A stretch of 62,587 nucleotides of DNA, the filler included, from a bacterium (GTDB lineage: Bacteria; JAMOTN01), in NCBI GenBank assembly GCA_027062325.1. It is 7 parts of 7 records of this genome, joined end to end, with 100 filler letters (N's around TTAATTAATTAA, not from the genome) between each part and the next. Parts side by side here need not be neighbours in the genome. Positions count along the whole stretch, not along the records: positions 1 to 10,450 come from JAMOTN010000021.1; 6 more parts are not named here. One strand, 5' to 3'. The translations under genes were made by a program, and so were the position numbers. How positions within the stretch are numbered: position 1 is the stretch's first letter; the number at the start of each line of letters is the position of its first letter. The notes under the pieces were generated by a model. That model searched no databases. It saw only the letters and a list, made by a program, of their open reading frames with translations, and was not told the origin of the DNA. Positions 1 to 13,266 of this stretch are shown here, one piece after another.

Positions 1-155
1 GTGTGAAAAAATTTGAAAAGTTGCTCAAATACTTTATCAGCAAGCGATTATACAGTGGTTTTTCACCAATTATTAAATTTATGGAAAATGCAGAGCTTCC
101 ACTTCAAGGAGCTGCACTTTACCCTGCAGTTTTAAAAGTAGAACAAGGAGAGTGA
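1..155 (+). CDS. ROK family sugar kinase, C-terminal fragment (continuation of 37857..38697)
   Basis: nt 1-27 are identical to 38671-38697. Frame 3 reads VKKFEKLLKYFISKRLYSGFSPIIKFMENAELPLQGAALYPAVLKVEQGE* (TGA 153-155), with the ROK C-terminal GAA motif. Not in the ORF track. Confidence 0.85.
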   Translation, partial: VKKFEKLLKYFISKRLYSGFSPIIKFMENAELPLQGAALYPAVLKVEQGE

Positions 156-160
156 TAAAG

Positions 161-2203
161 ATGGATAAGCTCAAGTTGGTTTTGGTATTTCATTGTCATC
201 AGCCGGTTGGGAACCATGATCACGTATTTGAAGCGGTTTACCGTGTATCTTACGGCCCCCTTCTTGATGTATTGGCAAAGAGTGGAATAAAATTTGGAAT
301 TCACTATACTGGGCCGCTTCTACTTTGGCTTGAGAAGAATAAGCCGGATTACTTAGAAAGGTTGAAAGAGGTTGTTGAATCAGGAAGAGCTGAAGTACTT
401 GGGGGTTCATTTTGGGAGTCTATACTTTCAGTTTGGCGGGAGAAGGACAGTTTATTTCAACTTGAGCGCATGAATTCTTACCTTCAAGATAAATTTGGGA
501 TTAAGCCACGTGGTATGTGGCTTGCAGAAAGAATTTGGGAGCAATTTTTGCCGGCGTGGATTGTTAAAGTTGGAATTGACTACACGTTAGTTGATGATTG
601 GCACTTTAAAATGGCTGGTTTGAAGCAAGAGGATTTAAAAAGTTATTTCTTAACAGAGCACGAGGGAGAAAAATTGGCAGTTTTCCCTATTGATCAGAAT
701 TTGCGTTACATGATACCTTATGCAACTCCTGATGAAATAGCCTCTTATTTGAAGCAACTTTACGATTCTGGTGTAAAGGTGGCTCTTATGGGAGATGACG
801 GAGAGAAGTTTGGGGCATGGCCTGGAACTTATGAGCATGTTTATGAAAACGGGTGGTTTATGCAGTTCTTTGATAAGGTAAATTCGCTGGACTTTGTTGA
901 GTTTGCCACTCCTTCTGAGGTTTTGGATACGGTGAGTGCTGCGGGATATGTTTACCTTCCAAATGCAAGTTACTATGAGATGACAGAATGGGCTCAACCT
1001 GCACCTGTTCAGAGGAAACAGGAGGAGTTTCAGGATAAATTAAAGGAGATTGGTTTATGGGAAGAGTATAAGACTTTTGTAAAGGGCGGTTTTTGGCGTA
1101 ACTTCTTTGTTAAGTATCCAGAGAGTAATGATATTCACAAGCGAGTGATTCAAGTTTCGAAGTTATTGGATGAGGTAGGGGTTGAGAGATTTGAAAGGGA
1201 TGATTTGTTAGCAGCTCAGTGTAATTGTGCCTACTGGCACGGGTTGTTTGGTGGGGTTTATGTGACCCACTTGAGAAATGCGCTGTGGCAGAATTTGGCG
1301 CGTGCTGAGAAGCGCTTGGCTGTACGCCAGGTTGAGGAGGATATAGATTGCGATGGAAAAAAAGAGGTGCAGGTGAAGAGGGAAGATTACGTTGCTACTT
1401 TGAAACCTGCGCGTGGAGGAGCAATGTTTGAACTTTTGGATTTAAATGGAGAGAAGAATTGGTTTGGAGTGGTTTCAAGACGCTATGAAGCGTATCACGA
1501 CAAGGTTAGCCGAGCTGTTCTTGCTTCAGAAGCAAGGGAGGTCAAAAGCATACACGATCTTGTGCTTGCTAAGGAAAAGGGATTAGAACGCTACTTAACT
1601 TATGATTGGCACAGAAGAGTTGGTTTTGTGGATCATGTTTTGCATCCTTCTACAACACTTGATACGTATGCTGCTGTTTCGTATGGAGAGCAGAGTGATT
1701 TCACAATTGAGCCTTTTGAGTATGAATTTAGGGGTAATGAGTTAATATTATGGAGAAATGGGCATGTTTGGGTTGATGATAAGTTTTTACCTACGCTTAT
1801 TGCCAAACATTTCAAATTTAATGATGGCGGATTTGAAGTGGAGTATAAGCTGCAAAATACTTCTAATCAGCCTATAGAGTATTGGTTTGGAGTGGAGACT
1901 ACACTCTTTATACTGTGGGATATGCCGCTTATTGCTGGGGAAAATTCTTATCCAAGAAATCAGAAGTGGGAGGTTAGAACGACAGAGCTAAAAGCCCAAG
2001 ATATTGGGGGCGAAGCTGAGCTAAAGTTTAGACTCTCTCAGGAAGCACTTTTATGGCACTTCCCAGTATGGGTGGTTTCGATGTCTGAAGCTGGATTTGA
2101 AAAAAACTTGCAAGGAAATAGTTTATTGTGGTCATGGCGTTTCATGTTGAATCCTTATGAGGATTGGAAGGTGCGGTTTGAGGTGGGGTTGAAAGGGAGT
2201 TAG
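161..2203 (+). CDS. GH57 family 4-alpha-glucanotransferase/alpha-amylase
   Basis: GH57 motifs HCHQP, GMWLAERIW (Glu nucleophile), DDGEKFG (Asp acid/base), AQCNCAYWHG. AAGGAG at 145-150 favours ATG 161 over GTG 152. Confidence 0.92.
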   Translation: MDKLKLVLVFHCHQPVGNHDHVFEAVYRVSYGPLLDVLAKSGIKFGIHYTGPLLLWLEKNKPDYLERLKEVVESGRAEVLGGSFWESILSVWREKDSLFQLERMNSYLQDKFGIKPRGMWLAERIWEQFLPAWIVKVGIDYTLVDDWHFKMAGLKQEDLKSYFLTEHEGEKLAVFPIDQNLRYMIPYATPDEIASYLKQLYDSGVKVALMGDDGEKFGAWPGTYEHVYENGWFMQFFDKVNSLDFVEFATPSEVLDTVSAAGYVYLPNASYYEMTEWAQPAPVQRKQEEFQDKLKEIGLWEEYKTFVKGGFWRNFFVKYPESNDIHKRVIQVSKLLDEVGVERFERDDLLAAQCNCAYWHGLFGGVYVTHLRNALWQNLARAEKRLAVRQVEEDIDCDGKKEVQVKREDYVATLKPARGGAMFELLDLNGEKNWFGVVSRRYEAYHDKVSRAVLASEAREVKSIHDLVLAKEKGLERYLTYDWHRRVGFVDHVLHPSTTLDTYAAVSYGEQSDFTIEPFEYEFRGNELILWRNGHVWVDDKFLPTLIAKHFKFNDGGFEVEYKLQNTSNQPIEYWFGVETTLFILWDMPLIAGENSYPRNQKWEVRTTELKAQDIGGEAELKFRLSQEALLWHFPVWVVSMSEAGFEKNLQGNSLLWSWRFMLNPYEDWKVRFEVGLKGS

Positions 2204-2252
2204 AATAGGTGTTTGGGTTGTAGAGAAGCAAAAAAAATGGATTTTCGTTAAA

Positions 2253-2522
2253 ATGGAGTTAGATATGGTGGAAAGAAGAGTATTTGTGGGTAAAGCAATC
2301 CACGCGCGTCCAGCCATGATGATTGTGGAGTTGGCCAATACTTTTTTGTCTCAGATTTGGTTAAGAAAAGGGGATATAACTGTAAATGCAAAAAGTGTGC
2401 TTGGGGTGTTGATGCTTGCGGCGGCTGAGGGAGATTATCTAGATGTAATTGCTGAAGGACCGGATGAAGAGAAGGCTGTTGAAGCTTTAAGTGATTTTAT
2501 TGCTACATTGGAGGTGGAGTGA
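2253..2522 (+). CDS. ptsH: HPr family phosphocarrier protein
   Basis: 89 aa; IHARPA (His15 site), NAKSVLGVLML (Ser46 site), AEGPDE. Confidence 0.9.
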   Translation: MELDMVERRVFVGKAIHARPAMMIVELANTFLSQIWLRKGDITVNAKSVLGVLMLAAAEGDYLDVIAEGPDEEKAVEALSDFIATLEVE

Positions 2523-3347
2523 ATGGGTGGAATGATAGTTGTAGTAATTCTAGGATTGTGGATTTTAAGCAGCATGATAAAAATTGTTCCCGAATATGAA
2601 AGGATGGTTGTTTTTAGACTGGGACGCTACATTGGGGTTTCAGGACCTGGGTTGGTTTTTTTACTTCCTTTTATAGATGAGGGAAGAAGGATCGATATGC
2701 GTGTTTTAGCAATGGACGTTCCTCAGCAGGATATTATTACCAAGGATAATGTTAGTGTCCGTGTTGATGCAGTTGTTTATATGAAAGTTGTGGATCCTGC
2801 TAAAGCAATTTTGCAAGTTGAAGATTACGACTATGCAACCAGCCAGCTTGCTCAAACAACTTTGAGAAGTGTAATAGGTGAGATGGAACTTGATGAAGTT
2901 TTGGCAAATCGTGAGAGGATAAACAGCCGATTGCAGGAAATACTTGACAGAGAAACTGATCCTTGGGGGATAAAGGTTATCTCTGTTGAGGTTAAAAAAG
3001 TTGATTTGCCGGAGAGTATGCAACGCGTTATGGCGCGTCAGGCTGAGGCAGAGCGTGAAAGAAGGGCAAAGATATTGGCTGCAGAAGGAGAGCTTCAAGC
3101 TGCGGATAAGTTGAAGAAGGCTGCAGAGATGTTGAAAGATCCTGTGGCCATGCAGATTAGGTACTTGCAAACTCTTACTGCTATTGCTAATGAAGTGAAA
3201 AGTCAGCTTATAGTATTTCCAATTCCTATAGAGCTACTTACAATGTTTAAGAAAAATGCGGGTGAGATAAAATCTGGAAAGGTCGTCAAAGTGGTTCACA
3301 AAAATAATAATACTACTCAAAGTCATCAAGATCATTCTGAATCGTAA
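2523..3347 (+). CDS. SPFH/Band 7 stomatin-like (slipin) protein
   Basis: N-terminal [53 protein letters not shown]. Confidence 0.92.
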
Positions 3348-3392
3348 GGAAGACTTTTAAGGCGTTTAAACTGCTTAAAGAACTCTTTAGGA

Positions 3393-4442
3393 GTGGAGGT
3401 TATGGATGCTAAGATTGGGCAAACTGTAAAGGGATTTGATGAGGTATTTAAAGAAGGTAATGAAATTATATTGAGAATGTATCCTCTTAGAATGTGGGGG
3501 TTGTGTAGTGTTATTTTGGGAGTAGGGTTAATGATTCTTGCAGGTTCCTATTTGTTTGGAGGAATAATAACGGCATTGGGGGTATGGCTTTATACTATAA
3601 CTCATGAGTGGAGGGTGGATATTAATCAAAGGGTAGTTAAATTGCCTGATGGAAGGGCTTTGAGAATAGAACCTCCTATAAGGACAATTCACATATCTGG
3701 ATCTGTTGAATATAAACAAAGTTGGTTGTCAGAAAGGGAGTATGCTGTTTTTTGGTTTGATGTTGTTTTAGTGGGGGAGACTCCAGCTTACCAATATAAA
3801 GTTGGTACCTTTGAAGGTTTTTTACAAGCTAAGCAGATTGCAGAGGTCATTGCAAAAGTTGGAGGATTGACCCTTTATGTTGTGATGGAAGATGAGGAAG
3901 TCGAGGTTCCCCCGCAGTATCTTGATGCAAATATCATAGAGAGATTAAAGTTGGGAATAGTGGAAGTAGATGAAAGTGTGTTAGCTACAGTAGTTCCTGA
4001 TAATGTAACTGAAGATCACAAGATGCTTGAGATAACTCTACATCCTTATGCGGGACACAAAGAAGTTTTGGATATGCTGAGTTTGGCTTCTATTGGAGTT
4101 GGAGTCTTGAGTTGTATGGACAATGGTCTGCCAGGTTTATTCATAGCGGGGCTTGGATTCAGTTTGATTTTCAAGGGATTGGGCTACATTGCAGCAGGGT
4201 GGAAGGGAATAGTGTATGTTGATGTTGTGAATAAAGAGATTGGCTTGAAGGGAGCTTTTGGAAAGAAGAGTTTAAAACTGGATGAGGTGGAAGAAATTTG
4301 GGTTACTCCTTTTGAAAATAATTGGATACTTATAACTTCTGATTTTGATGCTATATACGGTTATTTTACTACAGAGAATGAGGCTCAATGGGTTGTTGAG
4401 AAGATTAAACATTACATATTAAATTATGTTGTTAAAGGATGA
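3393..4442 (+). CDS. hypothetical membrane protein (two TM-hairpin + beta-domain modules)
   Basis: 349-aa ORF with RBS. Two pairs of hydrophobic helices, each followed by a beta-rich segment. Stop overlaps the next ORF. Confidence 0.7.
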   Translation: MEVMDAKIGQTVKGFDEVFKEGNEIILRMYPLRMWGLCSVILGVGLMILAGSYLFGGIITALGVWLYTITHEWRVDINQRVVKLPDGRALRIEPPIRTIHISGSVEYKQSWLSEREYAVFWFDVVLVGETPAYQYKVGTFEGFLQAKQIAEVIAKVGGLTLYVVMEDEEVEVPPQYLDANIIERLKLGIVEVDESVLATVVPDNVTEDHKMLEITLHPYAGHKEVLDMLSLASIGVGVLSCMDNGLPGLFIAGLGFSLIFKGLGYIAAGWKGIVYVDVVNKEIGLKGAFGKKSLKLDEVEEIWVTPFENNWILITSDFDAIYGYFTTENEAQWVVEKIKHYILNYVVKG

Positions 4443-4471
4443 TGAAAAGTCAAAATGATGGAGGGATTTTT

Positions 4472-5707
4472 ATGAAGAGAATGGCTGATATCGTTTTTGT
4501 ATGTGATTTGACTATTTCTATGAAAGCTTTTTTAGATGCATTTGTAAAAAGAATTCCAGTGTTGGCTCAGAGAATGACAGCAGATGGAATAGATTGGCAG
4601 ATAGGATTTGTAGGGTATGGAGATTTGAAAAAGGGAGATCCATTCATTGTTCACCCGCTGACTCGAGATATTAATTCAGTTGTATCAAAGATTGTCAGTG
4701 CTCCAACCTTTGAGGGAGGAGATATACCTGAGTCAACTTTAGATGCAATTCAAGAAGCTGTAAAACTTTTTAATGTAAATGATGACTTAAGAGATTTTAA
4801 GCCTGTGCGTCCGGAGGCGGATAGAGTTCTTATAGTGTTTACTGATTCACCTCCACACTTACCTGATGAAAATGGGTTCTGGGAGGATTTCACCGTAGAT
4901 GTTTTGAAGTGGACTAGGACTGCGTGTTTCATAGTGGGGCCGCATGTTAGTGCTTATGAGAAAATTGCGAATGAGACAGGTGGTAAGCTTTGGCCTATTA
5001 AAGAAGGTTTCTCAGTTGAAGAGATATTGCAAGTTGTTGATGGTTTACCTGAAACCGTGGGAACTATCAAGCTTCCTTGGTTTGGTAGTAAAGAGATTGA
5101 GAATCCATTTATAAGATTGGGCAAAAAGGTTAAGGTTGATGACATAGAGGCAAAGGAGGGGATAGATGTTGTAATTCTTTTTGATACGTCAGGAAGTATG
5201 GGAGAAGTTTTAGAAAATGTCAAGAAAAGTGCAGCAGCTTTTGTGCATAAGTTGTCTGAAAAAGCTAAGAAGTGGAGGATAGGAATAGTCGAGTTTTTCA
5301 ATTGGAATGGAATAAGATGGAGAGTTTATCCAATGGTTGACAACGAAGAAGATTTTCTCAAGAACTTTAAAAAGGTTACTCTTAAGATAAAAAGTGTATT
5401 CTGGGGAGAGAAGGGAAGTACCAAAATTCTTGAAGAGGCAATAAAACTTGTAAAAGATAGCAACGCTACCAAGGTTTTTATTCTGATAACAGATGGTCCT
5501 GATCTTGATAAGCCGCACGAAAGAGAAGAGGAGATACCCCTGATGGAGAAGCTGCTGAAAGAGAACAACATTGTTTTATTTGCAGTTGCTCCAAATGTGC
5601 CGCGTTATCACAGACTTTGTGAAGCTACGGGTGGCAAATTCTACGATTTGTATGAGGCTCAGGGTAGAGTTGATCTGGTAGCAATTGCAGATGCTATAAA
5701 GCAGTAA
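4472..5707 (+). CDS. tandem von Willebrand factor A (vWA) domain protein
   Basis: Two vWA units: DIVFVCDLTISM...FTDSPPH and DVVILFDTSGSM...ITDGP, each ending in TGG. Start at ATG 4472 after GGAGG; the ORF track starts at 4439. Confidence 0.85.
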   Translation: MKRMADIVFVCDLTISMKAFLDAFVKRIPVLAQRMTADGIDWQIGFVGYGDLKKGDPFIVHPLTRDINSVVSKIVSAPTFEGGDIPESTLDAIQEAVKLFNVNDDLRDFKPVRPEADRVLIVFTDSPPHLPDENGFWEDFTVDVLKWTRTACFIVGPHVSAYEKIANETGGKLWPIKEGFSVEEILQVVDGLPETVGTIKLPWFGSKEIENPFIRLGKKVKVDDIEAKEGIDVVILFDTSGSMGEVLENVKKSAAAFVHKLSEKAKKWRIGIVEFFNWNGIRWRVYPMVDNEEDFLKNFKKVTLKIKSVFWGEKGSTKILEEAIKLVKDSNATKVFILITDGPDLDKPHEREEEIPLMEKLLKENNIVLFAVAPNVPRYHRLCEATGGKFYDLYEAQGRVDLVAIADAIKQ

Positions 5708-5713
5708 GGGGGC

Positions 5714-6151
5714 GTGTTGATGGTTGCTTTCAAAAGTTTTAAGAAGAGCTATAATGTTTTCATAGATGGTAAGGAGGGTTTTTTAGATATAACGCCTCAA
5801 ATTGAAGAGGCTATAAGAGAGAGTGAGGTTAAAGAGGGGTTTGCGGTTGTTTATAACATGCATACTTCATCTGCCATATTTATTACAGATTCGGATAGAG
5901 AACTTGTGCTTGATATTATGGATGCTTTAAGAGAGGCAATTCCTGATTTAGCTTACCGTCACGATGAAGTTGATTATAAGAAAAATGCATTGGGACACAT
6001 TAAAAGTGCTCTGTTGGGAGTGTCTATTTTGTTGCCTATTACTGATGGAAAGTGGGATAGAGGTCATTATCACCGTGTATATTACGTTGATTTTGACGCG
6101 GGAAGAGAGAAAAGTTACTTTGTAAAGGTTGTTGGGAGTATTGAAGGATAA
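5714..6151 (+). CDS. YjbQ/UPF0047 family protein
   Basis: DITPQI, HTSSAI, YRHD, NALGHIKSALLG, DFDAGR match the YjbQ pattern. Confidence 0.85.
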   Translation: MLMVAFKSFKKSYNVFIDGKEGFLDITPQIEEAIRESEVKEGFAVVYNMHTSSAIFITDSDRELVLDIMDALREAIPDLAYRHDEVDYKKNALGHIKSALLGVSILLPITDGKWDRGHYHRVYYVDFDAGREKSYFVKVVGSIEG

Positions 6152-6193
6152 GGAGAGTTTGAAATGCAGAAATTTGAAGAGGGGGGAGGATTT

Positions 6194-7318
6194 ATGAAGA
6201 AAATTTTTACCTTGGCTTTAGTGGGAATTTTATGCGTTTATTCATTGGGATTTGCTTTTGATATTGTGATTTTTGGAGATAATCGTCCACATAATCAAGG
6301 AGAGCCGCAGCGTCCAGTGTTTAAACAGATATTGAAGGAGACTAATTACTGGAGACCTGACTTTTGCATAAATGTTGGAGATATTGTTCAAGGTTACACT
6401 AGGGATGATGCTCTTTTTGAGTGGGAGTATCGCGATTATATTGGCACTATAGCAAATTTAAAGGTTCCTATATATCATGTTGCTGGAAATCACGAAATTT
6501 GTTGGGGAGCAGGTAGAAGACTTTACAGCAAGTATATTGGTCAAACTTACTATTACATTGATCACAAGGGTTTTAGATTTATATTTTTATTCACAGATGA
6601 TGCTAACAAATGCAATTATGTATCAATAGAGCAGTATAAATGGTTAGTTGATACTTTGAATGAAGCCCAAAAGAAAAGTTTGACCCCGGTCGTTTTTATG
6701 CACAGACCTATTTTTACTCCGCTTCGTGGAGAGAAAAAAGGTTATGGTGCTAGTGGAGGCATAGAAGGATCTAGTTGGGGGATAGGATGGAAGGATAAAG
6801 CTATGGCAAAGGCCATTCATAAACTTTTTGTTAAATATGGAGTAAAGCATGTATTTGCGGGACATGAACACATGTTTGCTCACGCAGTTATAGATGGTGT
6901 TAATTACTGGATAACAGGTGGTGCTGGAGCTCCATTATATCCTACTCCAGAGAAAGGAGGATTTTTCCATTATCTACTTGCCAAGTTTGATGAGAAAACG
7001 AAAAATGTTGATGTAACAGTGATTCTTCCGTGGAGTTTGAATGCTACGGTAAAACAAGTTGGGAACGTAGCAGAGATAAATTTTGATAACAGGCTAAATG
7101 AACAGGCTTTCAGCAAGTTGCATCCATCTTTCTATGTTGATGTTGAAATGCCACCGTTTGAAAAATATGTTGTAAAAAGTGCAACTTGTGATGCTAAAAT
7201 AGTGAACATTAAAGATTCTCCAACTCAAAACGGGAAGATATTGACAGTAAGAATTACGCCAAATCCAGGACGTTGGTTCCAGAAAGTGGTGGAAAAAGTG
7301 GTGGTCGTAGGTAAGTGA
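6194..7318 (+). CDS. exported calcineurin-like metallophosphoesterase
   Basis: Signal peptide MKKIFTLALVGILCVYSLGFA; metal motifs FGDNR, VGDIV, GNHE, MHRP, AGHEH. Confidence 0.88.
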   Translation: MKKIFTLALVGILCVYSLGFAFDIVIFGDNRPHNQGEPQRPVFKQILKETNYWRPDFCINVGDIVQGYTRDDALFEWEYRDYIGTIANLKVPIYHVAGNHEICWGAGRRLYSKYIGQTYYYIDHKGFRFIFLFTDDANKCNYVSIEQYKWLVDTLNEAQKKSLTPVVFMHRPIFTPLRGEKKGYGASGGIEGSSWGIGWKDKAMAKAIHKLFVKYGVKHVFAGHEHMFAHAVIDGVNYWITGGAGAPLYPTPEKGGFFHYLLAKFDEKTKNVDVTVILPWSLNATVKQVGNVAEINFDNRLNEQAFSKLHPSFYVDVEMPPFEKYVVKSATCDAKIVNIKDSPTQNGKILTVRITPNPGRWFQKVVEKVVVVGK

Positions 7319-7361
7319 TAATTTTACTACTGCCTAAACACTTTTTTGAGGAGGGTTTCAG

Positions 7362-8078
7362 ATGCCAGGGCGTAGAAGAACCATAGTAGTAAAGCAAGAG
7401 TTCCAATTTAGATTCGCAATTATGTTGATAGTATTAGTAGTTATAGTTGCCAACTTGATGGGGGGAATGGTGTATCTGTTTTTAACAAATAAGCCGTTTC
7501 TTAGGTGGTTAGCTGACATGTTTTACCTTGTTGATGAAGAAGATGCAATACTACCTGCTATTTTGCTTGTTGAGGCTATATGTATACTCGTAGTTGGTTT
7601 CATAAGTATCTATGTTTCTCATGCAATGGCGGGGCCTGTATATCGTTTAGAAAAAGAGATAAAGGCTATAGCAGAAGGAGACTTGTCACACTTTATTCGT
7701 TTGAGAAAAGGAGATGAGTTTGTAGAGCTTGCCGATGCCCTTAACTACTTAATAGAACAGTATAGAGAAAGGTTGATGTTTATAAAAGAAAAGGTGGATT
7801 CTATTCTCAACTCGTCTAATCTTGAGGAGGCAAAGGATTTTGCAGGAGATGTAGCGGCAATTTTGGAAACATTCGTGTTTGAGAGAGAAGAGGTTAAGGA
7901 GGAAACAACTTTGGAAGAAAATGCTGTTAAAGTAAGCGGGGATTCAAAGAGAAGTGATGATGTGATGTTGGAGAAAGAAGCTGAAGAGAGTAAGATTAAG
8001 GAAAATGGTAGGGGTAGGTCGAAAAAGTCTGGCAAAAGTTCTAGAAGGGGTCGTAAAAGTAGGAAAAAGAAGAGCTAA
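7362..8078 (+). CDS. two-TM HAMP domain protein without output domain
   Basis: Two TM helices, SHAMAGPVYRLE...GDLS..IRLRKGDEF.ELADALN (HAMP), basic C-terminal tail. Paralog of 50690..51337. Confidence 0.8.
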   Translation: MPGRRRTIVVKQEFQFRFAIMLIVLVVIVANLMGGMVYLFLTNKPFLRWLADMFYLVDEEDAILPAILLVEAICILVVGFISIYVSHAMAGPVYRLEKEIKAIAEGDLSHFIRLRKGDEFVELADALNYLIEQYRERLMFIKEKVDSILNSSNLEEAKDFAGDVAAILETFVFEREEVKEETTLEENAVKVSGDSKRSDDVMLEKEAEESKIKENGRGRSKKSGKSSRRGRKSRKKKS

Positions 8079-8124
8079 AATTTATAAAATTTGTGGTTTT
8101 TAATATGAATAGGAGAGGATAGGT

Positions 8125-8874
8125 ATGAACTGTCCGGTGTGTGGTAGATTCATTGGAAATTATGTCAGATGTCCTTACTGTGGAGCATACGTACAGGATA
8201 GGAAACCTGTGTTTTGGTTAAGGATTTTGAGCATACTTATGATTTTGGTTGGATTTGCAGGAGTGCTGTACTTTTATCAGAACACTCCTGTGAAGTTGGT
8301 TAAGGCCTCTGAGTTAAAAGAAGTTATGAATTTTGCTTATGCTAGATTGAAGGGAAGGATTGTCAGAGTTGGATTTTATTCTGGAAGTGCTACTATATTA
8401 CTCGACGATGGTTCTGGAAGAATAATAAGGATAAATGCCTACTCAAATGTTGCGAATAAACTAAAAGCTAAGGGAATTGATGTTGGTTGTGAGGTGGATG
8501 TTGTAGGGCAAGTCAGATGGATGTCTGGAGATGTGAGGCTTTACCTTACTAATGCTGATGACTTTAAAATTTTGAGTTGCCCAGAAAAAAGTTACGTTAC
8601 TCTTTCTGAAGTTTTTAAAGAGAAAATTGGAAGTCGAGTTTTGGTGAAGGGGAAACTGAAGTTTGAGAGAGATTTAGCTGGAAAAGGTTTTGCCTATAGT
8701 CTCTATGAAGAAAACTCTGCGGCTTCTCCTGTTGCCTTGAAGGTTATATTTTGGAAAAATAGCTTTGATATTGGAAAAAGTTTAGATGGAAAAATTGTTG
8801 AGATAAGTGGTGTGATTAAGGATTATAAGGGAGAACGTGAAATCATAGTTTCTGACTTTAAGATTTTGGAGTAA
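8125..8874 (+). CDS. Zn-ribbon/TM/double OB-fold nucleic-acid-binding protein
   Basis: CPVCG...CPYCG, one TM helix, then two OB-like units (RLKGRIV...LLDDGSGRII...VDVVGQV and VLVKGKL...VEISGVIKDYKGEREII). Confidence 0.75.
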   Translation: MNCPVCGRFIGNYVRCPYCGAYVQDRKPVFWLRILSILMILVGFAGVLYFYQNTPVKLVKASELKEVMNFAYARLKGRIVRVGFYSGSATILLDDGSGRIIRINAYSNVANKLKAKGIDVGCEVDVVGQVRWMSGDVRLYLTNADDFKILSCPEKSYVTLSEVFKEKIGSRVLVKGKLKFERDLAGKGFAYSLYEENSAASPVALKVIFWKNSFDIGKSLDGKIVEISGVIKDYKGEREIIVSDFKILE

Positions 8875-8930
8875 AGTTTGAAATTTTTGGTTTATGAGTG
8901 TCAGAGGTTTAACAGCGAGGGGGAAGATAA

Positions 8931-10238
8931 GTGGAAGTGCTGCATTATTTGGGAGCTTGGTTGGCTGGCATGCTCATAGGAATAGCCTCAGGGGTTTTCC
9001 CAGCACTACACGTTTACAACATATTCGGTTTTGTGGTGCTAGTAATACTCAAATTCAGTCTCAGTTGGAAGTTGATCTTGACTTTTGCAGTTGCACTGAT
9101 AACTGCTTACTGTTTTTCAAATACGATTTCTAGCGTATTTTTTTCGCTGCCTGATGAAAGTACAGCATTCATGGTTTTACCTGCTGCTAAAATGTTGGCG
9201 CGGGGAAGAGGTTATGAGGCTGTTGTCATGACTAATATTGGAGCTTTGTTAGGGCTTGCTTTTTTTGCAGTTGTGATATATCTTGCTACTCCTCAATTGT
9301 ATTTACTCCACGGAGTACTTAGGGATTTAACTCCTGAAATACTTCTGGTAATTTTAGTTTACTTGGTTGTTCAAGAGTGGCCCAAGTTTTTTGAAGGGAG
9401 AAAAACGGGATTTGCTTTGTTTTTAGAGGGGATGAAGTCGATACTTGCAGGAATATTTGTATGGATTGCGTCTGGACTGCTTGGGTTTTACATTCTAAAC
9501 AAGACACTTGTGCCTTCAGAATGGGCATTTCAAGGATTGATGCCGGCTTTTGTAGGATTTTTTGCTGTGCCTTGGTTGATATTCAACATAGTAGCTCCGC
9601 ATTTGAAAAGTGAACAGTATGTACCTGATGATGTTGAAGTTGATGGTGAAACTATGGGGGCTTCAGTAGTAGCAGGGACTTTAGCTGGTTCACTAGCAGC
9701 GTATTTGCCAATTATTACAGGGGGAATGGCGGGAGTGTTGGCTGGGCACACTTTAGCTTCGCGTTCAAGTCGCGTTTTTATGGTTTCTTATGGAGCTAGT
9801 AAAACTATATACTACGTAGGAGCTTTGATTGTCTCTCTTGTTCCAACCATTTATCTTACGAGAGGCGGTCTTGCTTGGATGTTAGCTCCTTTTAAAGTTG
9901 AGTACAGTCCTTCAGACTTTGGTTTTGCTCTTGGTCTAATGCTTTTGACTGCTGGATTTTCATTTTTAATAGTTGATTATTTGGCTCGTTTAATTGCCAG
10001 GATATACCATAGGTTAAATATAAGTTTGATCTCTGTTATTTTATTGGTTTTAATAACAGGGGTTGTTTACTTTATTGCTTCAGTACAGGGATTGGTAATA
10101 ATGATTGCAGCAACTGGTATTGGAATATTTGCTGTAGTGTTCAATACTCGACGACTTAACTGTATGGGAGTTTTGTTAATACCGGTTGTTTTCAATATGT
10201 TTGGGTGGACAGATTATTTGAGAGAATGGCTGTTTTAA
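8931..10238 (+). CDS. TctA-like (archaeal-type, COG1784-like) polytopic permease
   Basis: 435 aa, about 12 TM helices; GIASGVFPALH, SVFFSLPDESTAFMVLPAAKMLARGRGYEAV resemble the short archaeal TctA family. Confidence 0.75.
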   Translation: MEVLHYLGAWLAGMLIGIASGVFPALHVYNIFGFVVLVILKFSLSWKLILTFAVALITAYCFSNTISSVFFSLPDESTAFMVLPAAKMLARGRGYEAVVMTNIGALLGLAFFAVVIYLATPQLYLLHGVLRDLTPEILLVILVYLVVQEWPKFFEGRKTGFALFLEGMKSILAGIFVWIASGLLGFYILNKTLVPSEWAFQGLMPAFVGFFAVPWLIFNIVAPHLKSEQYVPDDVEVDGETMGASVVAGTLAGSLAAYLPIITGGMAGVLAGHTLASRSSRVFMVSYGASKTIYYVGALIVSLVPTIYLTRGGLAWMLAPFKVEYSPSDFGFALGLMLLTAGFSFLIVDYLARLIARIYHRLNISLISVILLVLITGVVYFIASVQGLVIMIAATGIGIFAVVFNTRRLNCMGVLLIPVVFNMFGWTDYLREWLF

Positions 10239-10255
10239 GTTGTGGGGGGATTTAA

Positions 10256-10450
10256 TTGAAAGGAATTGCACACTTTACTACGGGAGTTGCAGTTGCCGCG
10301 CTGTGGCCTGGTGTTATGCAAGAGGCTTTGAGTACCCAGACTTTTTGGTTGGCTTTTGGTGGCTTAGCAGGAATACTACCTGATACTTTGGACTTTAAGT
10401 TGGCTCGATTTTTCTATAAACCAGATGTTTTCATAGACCCATTTGATGTT
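10256..10450 (+). CDS. YdjM-like membrane metal-dependent hydrolase, 3' truncated by contig end
   Basis: MKGIAHF...G.LPDTLD matches the N-terminal H and LPD motifs of the family. Confidence 0.65.
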
Positions 10451-10550: not shown

Positions 10551-12728
10551 TCTGAAATTTTGGATTCGTACAATGTTTATTCTAAGGCAGGTCAGAATTT
10601 AATAGAAGAGGCTTATGAGTTTGCAATTAAAGCTCATGCAGGGCAGAGGCGTCAGAGTGGCGAGCCATACTTTTCACATCCTTTTGAAGTGGCGAAAATC
10701 TTGACAGATTTAAAAATGGATGCCGTAACCATTGCAGCTGGACTTCTTCACGATACTATTGAGGATTGTGAAGAGGTTACGTTTGATCTTTTGAAAGAAA
10801 AATTTGGGCTTCCTGTTGCAGTGATTGTAGAAGGTGTGACCAAGCTTTCAAAGATAGCGGTTCCGGAGAAAAAAGTGCGGGATGCGGAGAGTATAAGAAA
10901 AATGTTACTTGCGATGTCAAAGGATATAAGGGTGGTTATAGTTAAGTTAGCAGATCGCCTCCACAACGTGCGCACTTTAAAAGGTGTAGGAGAAGAAAAA
11001 GAGAAGAGGATAGCTGCCCAAACACTTGAAATTTTTGCCCCTCTTGCTCATGCACTTGGAATGTACAAGATACAGCGTGAAATGGAAGATCTTTGTTTTG
11101 AAATTTTGTATCCAGCGGAGTTTAAGCGCATAAAAGCATTGATTGATGAATTATATGAGAAAAGGAAGGAGACTTTACATCAAGCAGTGGAGAAGATAGA
11201 ACGTGCTTTAAAGGGTAATGGGATAAATGCTCGAACTTCCTTTCGCGTTAAACATGCTTACAGCGTTTGGAGAAAGATGCATCTTAAGAGAAAGGATGCT
11301 TCTGAGATTTATGATTTGTTTGGAGTGAGGATTATAGTCAAGACGGTTGAGGAGTGTTATGCAGCGTTAGGAATTGTGCATACGTTATTTGTTCCGGTGC
11401 AGGGGCGCTTTAAGGATTATATTGCTATGCCAAAGAGTAACGGTTATCAGTCACTGCACACAACTCTGATGTTGAAGGGGGGAATTCCGTTCGAAGTTCA
11501 AATTAGAACTGAGAGGATGCACTACATTGCGGAAGAGGGAATTGCAGCTCATTGGCGTTACAAAGAGGGTGGAAGTGATGATGTAGCGGAGAAGATTCGG
11601 TGGATAAGACAACTTATTGAGTGGCACAAGGATGTCAAAGTTGAGAATCCTCTTGAGTATATTGAATGGATAAAGGTTGATTTGTTTCAGGAAGAGGTAT
11701 TCGTATTTACTCCGGCAGGAGATGTGGTAAGTCTTCCTGAGGGGGCGACGGCTCTTGATTTTGCTTACTACATACATACTGAAGTTGGGAATCATGCTAA
11801 GGTTGCCCGTGTAAATGGAATTGCAGTGCCATTGGACTATCGATTAAAAACTGGTGACATTATAGAGATAATCACTTCGAAAGAGGTTGAGCCGACTCGC
11901 GAGTGGCTGAATTGGGTTGCTACTTCTAGAGCAAAGAGTAAAATTCGTGCTTATATAAGGACAAAAGAGAGGGAGTTGTATCTTGAAGACGGCTTGAGAA
12001 AACTATTTGAGGTTATAAGACAATTCAAAATGAAACTACAAACATTTCCAGAGGAAACTTTAAAGGAAAAAAATATTGATCTTTCGATACCTGAGGCTGA
12101 ATCACCAGAAAAGTTGAGGCAAAGTCCGCTTCTTGAAAAAGCAGCTGTTGAATTGAACAAGGAGAGTATTGAGGAATTGCTGCTAGCTGTGGGGAGGGAT
12201 GAGATCAAACCTAAAAGAGTTCTAGAATTTATAGTGCCAGCTTGGTTGGAGCTTGCTGCTTTGAAGGTCAAAAGGGAAGGTCAAACTTTGCGAAAAAGTA
12301 TGGGATCTGTTGTTAAGATCTCTGGAAAGAGTGGTATTGCTTATAAGATTTCAAAGTGTTGTTGTCCAATACCAGGAGATGATGTTGTAGGAGTTGTCAC
12401 CAGGAAAGGATTTATATCAATTCACAGAAAAAATTGTGCTAATGTTAATGGCGTTTTGCCGGAACGATTGGTTGATGTTGAGTGGACTGACTGGAAAGGA
12501 AAATTTGAAGTTTATGTTTTGGTTGAAGCTGTAGACAGAGAAGGGCTTTTGATGGATGTAGCTGCAGCATTGCGTGATATGTCAATAAATTTAAAACATG
12601 TGGAGGCATGGACTGAGGGGACACGAGCCTTTATAAAATTACGTTTTGAAGTTAAATCTAGGCAAGAATTGGAGAACGTTTTAAAGAAGATAAGGGGAGT
12701 AAAAGGGGTGGTTAATGTTAGTCGTTAA
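10551..12728 (+). CDS. rel: bifunctional (p)ppGpp synthetase/hydrolase Rel (5' end at contig edge)
   Basis: LLHDTIED (HD), KLADRLHN, RFKDYIAMPKSNGYQSLHT, EVQIRT, TGS (ALDFAYYIHTEVG), KCCCPIPGD, C-terminal ACT. Confidence 0.96.
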   Translation, partial: SEILDSYNVYSKAGQNLIEEAYEFAIKAHAGQRRQSGEPYFSHPFEVAKILTDLKMDAVTIAAGLLHDTIEDCEEVTFDLLKEKFGLPVAVIVEGVTKLSKIAVPEKKVRDAESIRKMLLAMSKDIRVVIVKLADRLHNVRTLKGVGEEKEKRIAAQTLEIFAPLAHALGMYKIQREMEDLCFEILYPAEFKRIKALIDELYEKRKETLHQAVEKIERALKGNGINARTSFRVKHAYSVWRKMHLKRKDASEIYDLFGVRIIVKTVEECYAALGIVHTLFVPVQGRFKDYIAMPKSNGYQSLHTTLMLKGGIPFEVQIRTERMHYIAEEGIAAHWRYKEGGSDDVAEKIRWIRQLIEWHKDVKVENPLEYIEWIKVDLFQEEVFVFTPAGDVVSLPEGATALDFAYYIHTEVGNHAKVARVNGIAVPLDYRLKTGDIIEIITSKEVEPTREWLNWVATSRAKSKIRAYIRTKERELYLEDGLRKLFEVIRQFKMKLQTFPEETLKEKNIDLSIPEAESPEKLRQSPLLEKAAVELNKESIEELLLAVGRDEIKPKRVLEFIVPAWLELAALKVKREGQTLRKSMGSVVKISGKSGIAYKISKCCCPIPGDDVVGVVTRKGFISIHRKNCANVNGVLPERLVDVEWTDWKGKFEVYVLVEAVDREGLLMDVAAALRDMSINLKHVEAWTEGTRAFIKLRFEVKSRQELENVLKKIRGVKGVVNVSR

Positions 12729-12792
12729 GTGGTAAAATATCCATAGGTAGATGATGCATCTTGCAAACTGTTTTTTCAAGGAGGGATTTTCG

Positions 12793-13266
12793 ATGAGTAT
12801 TGTTTATGCAGCTTCTACGGCAGAGCAAGCGGTAAATCTCTTAAACAAATTAAACCCTTTAACTCTTGCAATTATTGGTTTGGTTGTTGTAGCAGTAGTA
12901 CTTGCTATGATGGCTTCTTCGCGTGCTCCAATTTCAACAGGAGTTGCGGGTTCTGGAAGGGTTAGAAGTGGGAGGTCAAGTTCAATAAAGGATGAGTATA
13001 ATGAGGACAAGTTGGGAGAAGAAAAAGAAGGAGAGGAGAAGGATAAGAAAGAAGAGGGAGAAGAGAAGAAAGAAGGAGATGCCAAAGAGGGAGAAGAAGA
13101 TAAGGAAGATGCTACTGATAGAGAGGATATGGATTTTAGTTATGATGAAGATGATGAGGATGAGAAAGAAGATGATGAGGAGGAAGAAGAGGAAGAAGAT
13201 GCCACGGATGAAGATGATATGGATTTTGACTATGATGACGACGATGATGATGATGATGATGAGTAA
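12793..13266 (+). CDS. single-TM protein with highly acidic tail
   Basis: GGAGG upstream of ATG 12793; one TM; Asp/Glu-rich C-terminus with an internal duplication. Confidence 0.7.
   Translation: MSIVYAASTAEQAVNLLNKLNPLTLAIIGLVVVAVVLAMMASSRAPISTGVAGSGRVRSGRSSSIKDEYNEDKLGEEKEGEEKDKKEEGEEKKEGDAKEGEEDKEDATDREDMDFSYDEDDEDEKEDDEEEEEEEDATDEDDMDFDYDDDDDDDDDE

Follow-up and report, generated by a model that had tools for sequence, protein, structure and literature searches.

Does a TctA-family permease that is encoded between a membrane-anchored OB-fold protein and a YdjM-like hydrolase take up nucleic acid, and do the three genes belong together at all? The question is raised by positions 8125-10450 of a stretch of 62,587 nucleotides (filler included), referred to below as the window, from assembly GCA_027062325.1. 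Positions 1-10450 represent a single contig (C21), and everything from 10451 onward derives from other contigs. The host is an uncultured vent bacterium; the DNA sequencing runs containing the stretch are labelled hydrothermal vent metagenome (three DNA runs and no RNA runs listed), and its genome (1.65 Mb, 81 contigs, 83.9% complete) is that of the sole species of its phylum in the genome set searched. An earlier note on this DNA had seen in the three genes a candidate non-ComEC, archaeal-style import system for DNA or oligonucleotides, in which the OB protein replaces TctC. The present analysis supports this interpretation in part. The best-supported statement is that the genes constitute a conserved three-component membrane system with an architecture common to a pair of archaeal transformation proteins; import of nucleic acid is a candidate function.

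A TctA-like permease with partners of its own

The three open reading frames (ORFs) of the trio lie co-directionally on the plus strand within 8125-10450, separated by intergenic gaps of 56 and 17 nt, and are thus as closely spaced as previously described (Table 1). No terminator-like site was found in either gap, and the counts of promoter and terminator sites in the region were at chance level.

The second ORF encodes a permease which matched the TctA family (PF01970) from end to end (1.3e-31, 110 bits) and is the only TctA-family match in the genome. The earlier note had reported this 435-aa protein to lack TctB and TctC partners, and indeed no match to TctB (PF07331) at the locus or in the genome and none to TctC (PF03401) in the genome was obtained, the genome being 83.9% complete. 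Across 201 genomes drawn broadly from the host's domain (~193 genera), the PF01970 scores were bimodal. A canonical class, detected in 13 genomes, scored 422-560 bits with ORFs of ~500 aa or longer, whereas a TctA-like class, detected in 11 genomes including this one, scored 56-131 bits with frames of 435-556 aa; two further genomes contained sub-threshold fragments only. The neighbours of the two classes differed as well. TctC and TctB genes were located directly upstream of canonical TctA in 12 out of 12 control loci (a thirteenth locus, L087, was left out of the count, a spurious frame having been picked), whereas in the TctA-like loci this position was occupied by an anchored OB gene.

A quick tree search with 35 permeases, from which the cut locus L108 and additional canonical copies (L087 and L112-L115) had been excluded, placed the 12 canonical and the 23 TctA-like rows at opposite ends of a branch of 3.07+2.6 changes per site (SH-aLRT support 100). 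As anticipated in the earlier note, the window permease did not group with canonical TctA; its sister in the tree was P0004 (51% identity). The permease is clearly not a canonical TctA. Compared with TctABC of the Salmonella citrate system (PF01970, PF07331 and PF03401), the Pfam family and the fold of the large subunit are kept, but the size of ~500 aa, the score range and the TctB and TctC partners of the canonical loci are not. The current name of such permeases, 'tripartite tricarboxylate transporter permease', is probably misleading. As a lead only, the ESM Atlas placed the permease nearest to a fully archaeal 'DUF112' cluster (Methanobacteriota, 409 aa) with TM scores of 0.85/0.90, compared with 0.65/0.42 for a bacterial canonical TctA cluster. 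A hydropathy scan yielded overlapping segments, which leaves the helix count unreliable. No fused permease forms were found among proteins of 763-2175 aa, which is weak evidence.

One genome per species was scanned with a 31-sequence permease alignment, resulting in 392 confirmed relatives, and the loci of the best 80 of these were analysed. All best 80 carried titles of bacterial metagenome-assembled genomes, mostly from Anaerolineae/Chloroflexota, with Spirochaetes, Muiribacteriota, Brocadiia/Planctomycetota, Wallbacteria, Verrucomicrobiota and Myxococcales also represented. According to Pfam, PF01336 was matched, with up to four stretches, by 46 of the 66 upstream ORFs that reached 100 aa (the other 14 loci offered no upstream ORF of this length), and PF04307 by 14 of 55 downstream ORFs. 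Custom OB and YdjM-like profiles, run on all stop-to-stop frames of the 80 loci, placed a same-strand OB gene upstream of the permease in 61, in many cases with an overlap or a gap of 0-20 nt to the permease start, and a same-strand YdjM-like gene downstream in 29. In 20 loci both partners were identified and in 10 neither, and some of the latter were cut short; on the opposite strand of the 80 loci, no match to either profile was observed. The supposed linkage is therefore conserved.

Consistent with this, the partners followed the permease through the 201 genomes. The profile of the insert-type YdjM-like protein (E<=1e-20) matched in 10 genomes, all of them among the 11 TctA-like carriers, and in 0 of the 190 others. 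The OB profile (E<=1e-15) matched in 15 genomes including all 11 carriers, and OB matches that included the zinc-ribbon/transmembrane start were confined to the same 10 genomes that carry the YdjM-like gene. All three parts were thus found together in 10 of 201 genomes, which belong to different families. The only sampled genome with the permease but without the YdjM-like partner (G099) contains a long-branch TctA-like gene of 56 bits (L109), flanked by neither an OB nor a YdjM-like gene; next after it comes an ABC ATPase gene. The adjacency of the three genes is far more than chance, and from their co-occurrence in the 201 genomes together with their linkage it follows that the three parts behave as one conserved system in bacteria.

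The OB protein and the YdjM-like hydrolase

The first gene encodes a protein that matched PF01336 with 8.8e-7 and 29.2 bits (cut-off 27); further Pfam matches, to Zn_ribbon_3, RMI2 and DUF4131 (the N-terminal domain of ComEC), remained below threshold. The order of CxxC-CxxC ribbon, membrane helix and two OB folds noted earlier was confirmed by the motif positions and by an AlphaFold2 model (pLDDT 92.8). Structural comparison of the model with Foldseek gave as top PDB matches Teb1 AB (6e-10), Pyrococcus RPA, the single-stranded DNA-binding protein (SSB) of Deinococcus (D. radiodurans), RPA70 DBD-AB with single-stranded DNA, HIN-200 domains with double-stranded DNA, and POT1. These top matches, with E values from 6e-10 to 1e-5, are all DNA or RNA binders of the tandem-OB kind, so that the folds appear, as far as the model goes, to be of the nucleic-acid-binding type, in agreement with the earlier suggestion. 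The corresponding TM scores were low (0.25-0.37) because the domain orientations differ. The nucleic-acid-binding families matched by OB partners were PF01336 and PF13742.

Full HMMER searches of 1.84 billion representatives yielded 460 relatives of the OB protein (E<=1e-3), of which 192 also passed E<=1e-10; many are 500-1000 aa long with 3-5 OB stretches. A word-based search recovered a single relative, and the family is therefore fast-evolving. Alignment A3 showed a near-invariant CPxCG...CPYCG ribbon (C3, C6, C16 and C19), a basic juxtamembrane stretch, one transmembrane helix and then the OB folds. The double CxxC was present in 30 of 48 OB partners, and in 44 of 48 the helix was located after the ribbon or at the N-terminus. 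In 29 of 32 family members, the N-terminal segment carries a net positive charge (mean +2.7). Given the positive-inside rule, and since Cys4 ribbons need a reducing compartment, the ribbon is predicted inside and the OB folds outside the cytoplasm, the protein being held by a type-II anchor. The extracytoplasmic position that the earlier note had assigned to the OB domains is thus also the one predicted from N-terminal charge and from the order of motif and helix. The net charge of the ectodomain was rejected as a test of DNA binding, as it is too variable. In some Anaerolineae loci, two tandem anchored OB genes precede the permease gene, and in 14 loci the OB gene comes after one for a GNAT acetyltransferase (tandem-OB/GNAT side loci: L006, L011, L013-L015, L020, L035, L041, L043, L051, L052 and L080).

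The third gene is cut by the end of contig C21 at 10450. The YdjM-like gene seen earlier was confirmed as a 65-aa start, and the remaining 252 aa were found at the end of contig C52 (G000:C52:25751-26506, minus strand) in a frame that is open at its 5′ end. Compared with PF04307 (YdjM), the N-terminal piece scored 19.4 bits (7.9e-4), which is under the cut-off of 29, and the C-terminal piece 36.1 bits, which is over it; the profile from alignment A2 matched both pieces (2.3e-26 and 3.9e-87). When aligned with 12 full-length homologues, the second piece continues where the first one stops. An in-frame overlap of 5 nt between the contig ends would yield a 316-aa protein but is too short as proof of the join. 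Downstream of the gene, C52 carries an RpoZ-like and then an HD_3/YfbR-like gene. The RpoZ-like protein (L084:809-1411, 200 aa) ends in an extremely acidic Asp/Glu-rich C-terminal tail. The RelA/SpoT gene at 10560-12728, which stands beside the YdjM-like gene in the window, is no physical neighbour, its position being an artefact of concatenation.

The motifs MKGxTHF, GILPDTLDFK, FLPWHRxWSHS and HxxEDQxGxMGSNLFWP are near-invariant in A2. A soluble alpha/beta insert of ~120 residues splits PF04307 between profile positions ~53 and ~55. In the AlphaFold2 model of a Spirochaete homologue (pLDDT 85), three N-terminal membrane helices precede the insert (residues 58-185) and four more follow it. 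A Foldseek search with this model remained without a PDB match at E<=1e-3 (best CusF, 0.034), VIA wide gave a best Z of 6.8 to helical hairpins, and a profile search of the protein against the PDB sequences returned no match at E<=1. No NCBIfam model matched any protein of the trio. Like E. coli YdjM/DUF457 (PF04307), a LexA-regulated inner-membrane protein, the third gene product matches the family and keeps its His/Asp motifs; it differs in length, the family model having 176 positions compared with ~316-430 aa including the soluble insert in the trio-type proteins, and the trio-type form is strictly tied to a TctA-like gene. The third gene product is, as judged from the family match of its C-terminal piece, a predicted membrane metal-dependent hydrolase of the YdjM/DUF457 type. 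A review (PMC11442139) describes proteins with YdjM motifs as LexA-regulated in E. coli and S. aureus.

Table 1. Features of the three-gene cassette and of the adjoining contig boundary (positions in the window).
Feature	Position	Strand	Basis
Membrane-anchored tandem-OB protein, 249 aa, whole gene	8125..8874	+	ORF, PF01336, AlphaFold2 model
N-terminal Cys4 zinc ribbon, residues 1-25, predicted cytoplasmic	8125..8199	+	CxxC at residues 3 and 16
Single transmembrane helix, residues 29-53	8209..8283	+	AlphaFold2 helix, hydropathy peak 2.29
OB fold 1, residues 72-151, predicted extracytoplasmic	8338..8577	+	AlphaFold2 secondary structure, Foldseek
OB fold 2, residues 171-247, predicted extracytoplasmic	8635..8865	+	AlphaFold2 model; PF01336 best stretch residues 206-248
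TctA-like (DUF112-type) permease, 435 aa, GTG start	8931..10238	+	PF01970, tree, Atlas
N-terminal 65 aa of insert-bearing YdjM-like membrane hydrolase, TTG start	10256..10450	+	PF04307, A2 profile
Assembly spacer, N runs around ttaattaattaa	10451..10551	.	Concatenation, not biology; different contig after

Larger cassettes and surroundings of the genes

Some loci contain additional genes. A protein of ~960 aa with a lamin-tail domain (LTD), DUF11 and PLDc_2 is encoded directly after the YdjM-like gene in 5 of the 80 loci, while in 7 loci (Anaerolineae/Thermoflexia) the gene after the permease instead encodes a LysM+LTD protein. The window's own cassette is without a PLD gene. Genes for secreted PLDc_2 proteins with a double HKD motif were located at L005:6375-9278, L032:5327-8212, L117:6435-8528 and L118:7355-10447; the PLD protein carries the lamin-tail domain in L005, L032, L116 and L117 and none in L118.

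Upstream of the trio, a metallophosphoesterase gene (6164-7318; PF00149, 2.5e-12) with a hydrophobic N-terminus ends 0.8 kb before the OB gene, at the distance given in the earlier note. Its membership in the system did not hold, as homologues were found in 0 of the 80 related loci. The same was observed for the other upstream genes (HAMP, UPF0047, VWA and three others), and the upstream genes were rejected as conserved members of the cassette. Among them, a gene for a protein with two VWA domains (4439-5707) is followed after 6 nt by the UPF0047 (YjbQ-like) gene (5714-6151); farther upstream are a GH57 amylase/4-alpha-glucanotransferase gene (152-2203) and an SPFH/Band-7 gene (2523-3347). On another contig of the window, positions 12751-13266 encode a membrane-anchored 171-aa ORF without a Pfam match and with an extremely acidic Asp/Glu-rich C-terminal tail. 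The GC content of the window is 33-41%. The GC skew is very strong across most of it (+0.3 to +0.47), turns to -0.09 to -0.36 at 38-46 kb and follows the coding strand.

The methanogen pair, ComEC and possible functions

The earlier note had referred to a report that a TctA-like transporter is needed for natural transformation in methanogens. The report exists, and the note understated it, as the published system is an adjacent OB-fold/TctA-like pair. In a transposon-mutant screen for natural transformation of Methanococcus maripaludis, as reported by Fonseca et al. 2023 (PMC10133366), MMJJ_13020 is a single-transmembrane OB-fold protein and the adjacent MMJJ_13030 a protein of TctA-like type that crosses the membrane 11 times. 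In-frame deletion of either gene abolished transformation and was complemented, both genes being essential; a TctA-like homologue was essential in Methanoculleus thermophilus too, in which, according to the paper, BLAST gave no clear homologue of MMJJ_13020. The terms hydrolase, YdjM and DUF457 do not occur in the text of the paper. The window shares with the pair an adjacent, co-directional arrangement of an anchored OB protein and a TctA-family permease without TctB or TctC; Pfam families, architecture and gene order are common to both, and the OB partner is fast-evolving in both. The pair is archaeal, whereas the host of the window is a bacterium, the sole species of its phylum in the genome set searched. 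Further differences are the insert-bearing YdjM-like partner, which is obligatory in bacteria and unmentioned in the paper on the pair, and the coexistence of a ComEC-type gene with the bacterial trio.

TctA-like proteins are not mainly archaeal, and an 'archaeal-style' system in a bacterium is not supported; both terms of the earlier note had to be given up given that the best 80 of 392 relatives are all bacterial. The sole archaeal-labelled sequence of the tree, P0042 ('Candidatus Natronoplasma'; 38% identical to the window permease), nests among bacterial ones. A metagenome scan with P0042 identified three loci, of which L116 and L117 are 83-84% and L118 is 39% identical to it. The gene order in L117 and L118 is two OB genes, permease, YdjM-like gene and PLDc_2 gene; in L116, a single OB gene, cut by the contig start, is followed by TctA-like, YdjM-like and LTD-PLD genes. 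In the ESM Atlas, again as a lead only, the clusters closest to the OB protein were bacterial, and archaeal clusters ranked lower.

ComEC/Rec2 combines an N-terminal OB domain (DUF4131), the Competence domain and a metallo-beta-lactamase nuclease. In the trio this logic is divided among three genes, with a membrane helix followed immediately by an external OB fold, a polytopic membrane protein as translocator, and a metal-dependent hydrolase. That the trio, which probably forms one operon and is a conserved three-part inner-membrane system, captures and imports nucleic acid is proposed from its OB families and folds, from the genetics in archaea and from this ComEC-like division of labour. We put it forward as a candidate, about equally likely to hold or to fail. 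From these data we infer the topology of the system, its ligand, the direction of transport and the enzymatic role. Its first part would consist of a cytoplasmic Cys4 zinc ribbon, one membrane helix and two RPA/SSB-type OB folds outside, and its second of a divergent DUF112-type TctA-family permease working without TctB and TctC. At the membrane surface, the OB array would catch single-stranded nucleic acid or oligonucleotides from outside the cell and pass them to the permease for import, and the YdjM-like hydrolase may process the substrate or the partner strand.

Several observations weigh against nucleic acid import. One of them concerns ComEC: a ComEC-type match was found in 195 of 201 genomes of the host's domain, which marks the host as a bacterium, and in 11 of 11 TctA-like carriers, and the two distributions are not complementary. 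In the window's own genome, a 298-aa ORF on contig C16 (L002:1123-2019), located directly after a prepilin-type gene (L002:141-911), contains a partial Competence domain (PF03772, 31.7 bits, model positions 13-138 of 270) without an OB or beta-lactamase domain; no other of the 195 positive genomes has a weaker match. The term 'non-ComEC' of the earlier note could therefore not be retained, and because all carriers have a ComEC-type match, the trio does not generally take the place of ComEC. The window's genome also has HHH_3 matches of the ComEA type, whereas DprA was not found in it (83.9% complete), and no significant DUF4131 match was obtained there. The ComEC/Rec2 domains PF03772 and Lactamase_B are absent from the cassette proteins. 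The OB protein reached 17.8 bits (2.8e-3) with PF13567 (DUF4131), which is under the cut-off of 31.6, and weak DUF4131 matches, all below the cut-off, were detected in 9 of 66 OB partners scanned. When the OB protein was compared by hhalign with the first 240 aa of 12 ComEC proteins, the probability was 59% over 69 columns, with OB1 paired to the ComEC OB, which speaks for no more than generic OB similarity.

The remaining objections concern the parts themselves. The permease has the fold of a solute transporter with a compact conserved site (49 invariant columns in alignment A1), which leaves the passage of a polymer unexplained. The net charge of the OB ectodomain spans -49 to +38, and no uniform basic surface is apparent. 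Proteins with YdjM motifs are described, in the review PMC11442139, as predicted membrane metal-dependent hydrolases, possibly phospholipase, and the only solved sequence relative of the PLD partner, which occurs in 8 other loci, is a phospholipase. Homology to MMJJ_13020 and MMJJ_13030 is suggested by shared Pfam families, architecture, gene order and the Atlas lead, and our literature search found no assay of any bacterial member.

A rival explanation, which we consider rather doubtful but by no means negligible, is that the permease carries an organic anion, a nucleotide or another small solute, as canonical tripartite tricarboxylate transporters do. The anchored OB protein would then replace TctB and TctC as a tethered receptor or scaffold for a ligand other than nucleic acid, for example an oligosaccharide, and the hydrolase would free the transportable unit from a larger substrate. 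The kept TctA fold with invariant Gly, Pro and charged positions typical of a defined site, the OB gene in the tctC-tctB position, the ectodomain charge and the presence of ComEC in all carriers are in line with a small-molecule importer, and OB folds are also known to bind oligosaccharides. Nevertheless, the OB domains match PF01336 and PF13742 and have DNA or RNA binders as their fold neighbours throughout, and an array of 3-5 or more OB repeats is better matched to a polymer than to a small solute. Moreover, the sole genetics for such an architecture, those of PMC10133366, concern DNA uptake.

An envelope or lipid-maintenance module, in which the YdjM-like and PLD-type enzymes act on phospholipids or surface polymers and the permease moves the product, appears unlikely. 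The archaeal transformation defect would in that case be indirect, for example via surface or pilus integrity. The possible phospholipase activity of YdjM-motif proteins, the phospholipase relative of the PLD partner and the position of LTD-PLDc_2 genes after the YdjM-like gene (5 of the 80 loci and 2 of 3 further loci, the third having PLDc_2 without the lamin-tail domain) argue for such a module; but the PLD superfamily also contains nucleases, no PLD gene belongs to the window's cassette, and the surface array of RPA/SSB-type OB folds would be left unexplained. The regulation of YdjM by SOS/LexA in E. coli and S. aureus, taken from the review PMC11442139, also points to DNA and not to lipid. 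Finally, that the genes are chance neighbours or linked by local synteny only, without working together, is highly improbable, since, although promoter and terminator scans remained at chance level and no expression data were found, the three parts recur together in different families, their insert-type YdjM-like and ribbon-bearing OB partners were not found outside permease-bearing genomes of the sample, and they are co-directional and often overlapping or a few bases apart in loci of several phyla.

How DNA passes the archaeal membrane is an open question, for which the OB/TctA-like pair described in 2023 is the only candidate transporter. Our literature search found no published account of bacterial counterparts of this pair. 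Shown here are the wide distribution of the OB/TctA-like architecture in bacteria, a strictly co-occurring third component and the clear separation of the whole from citrate-type TctABC, which together provide a defined list of three proteins amenable to tests in easier bacterial hosts. With ComEC-type genes present alongside it in bacteria, the trio may serve there in scavenging nucleic acid or as a second import route and not as the sole route of transformation. The finding thereby raises the possibility of a ComEC-independent route for nucleic acid uptake or scavenging. That many phyla possess a second, ComEC-independent nucleic acid import machine shared with archaea, composed of three obligatory parts, namely an external OB array, a TctA-like translocator and a YdjM-like membrane nuclease, is a tentative proposal which we regard as possible, though on the doubtful side. 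If it is true, the OB/channel/nuclease logic of ComEC would be repeated with unrelated parts, and the trio could represent the main route of DNA entry in this vent bacterium with its exceptionally weak ComEC match.

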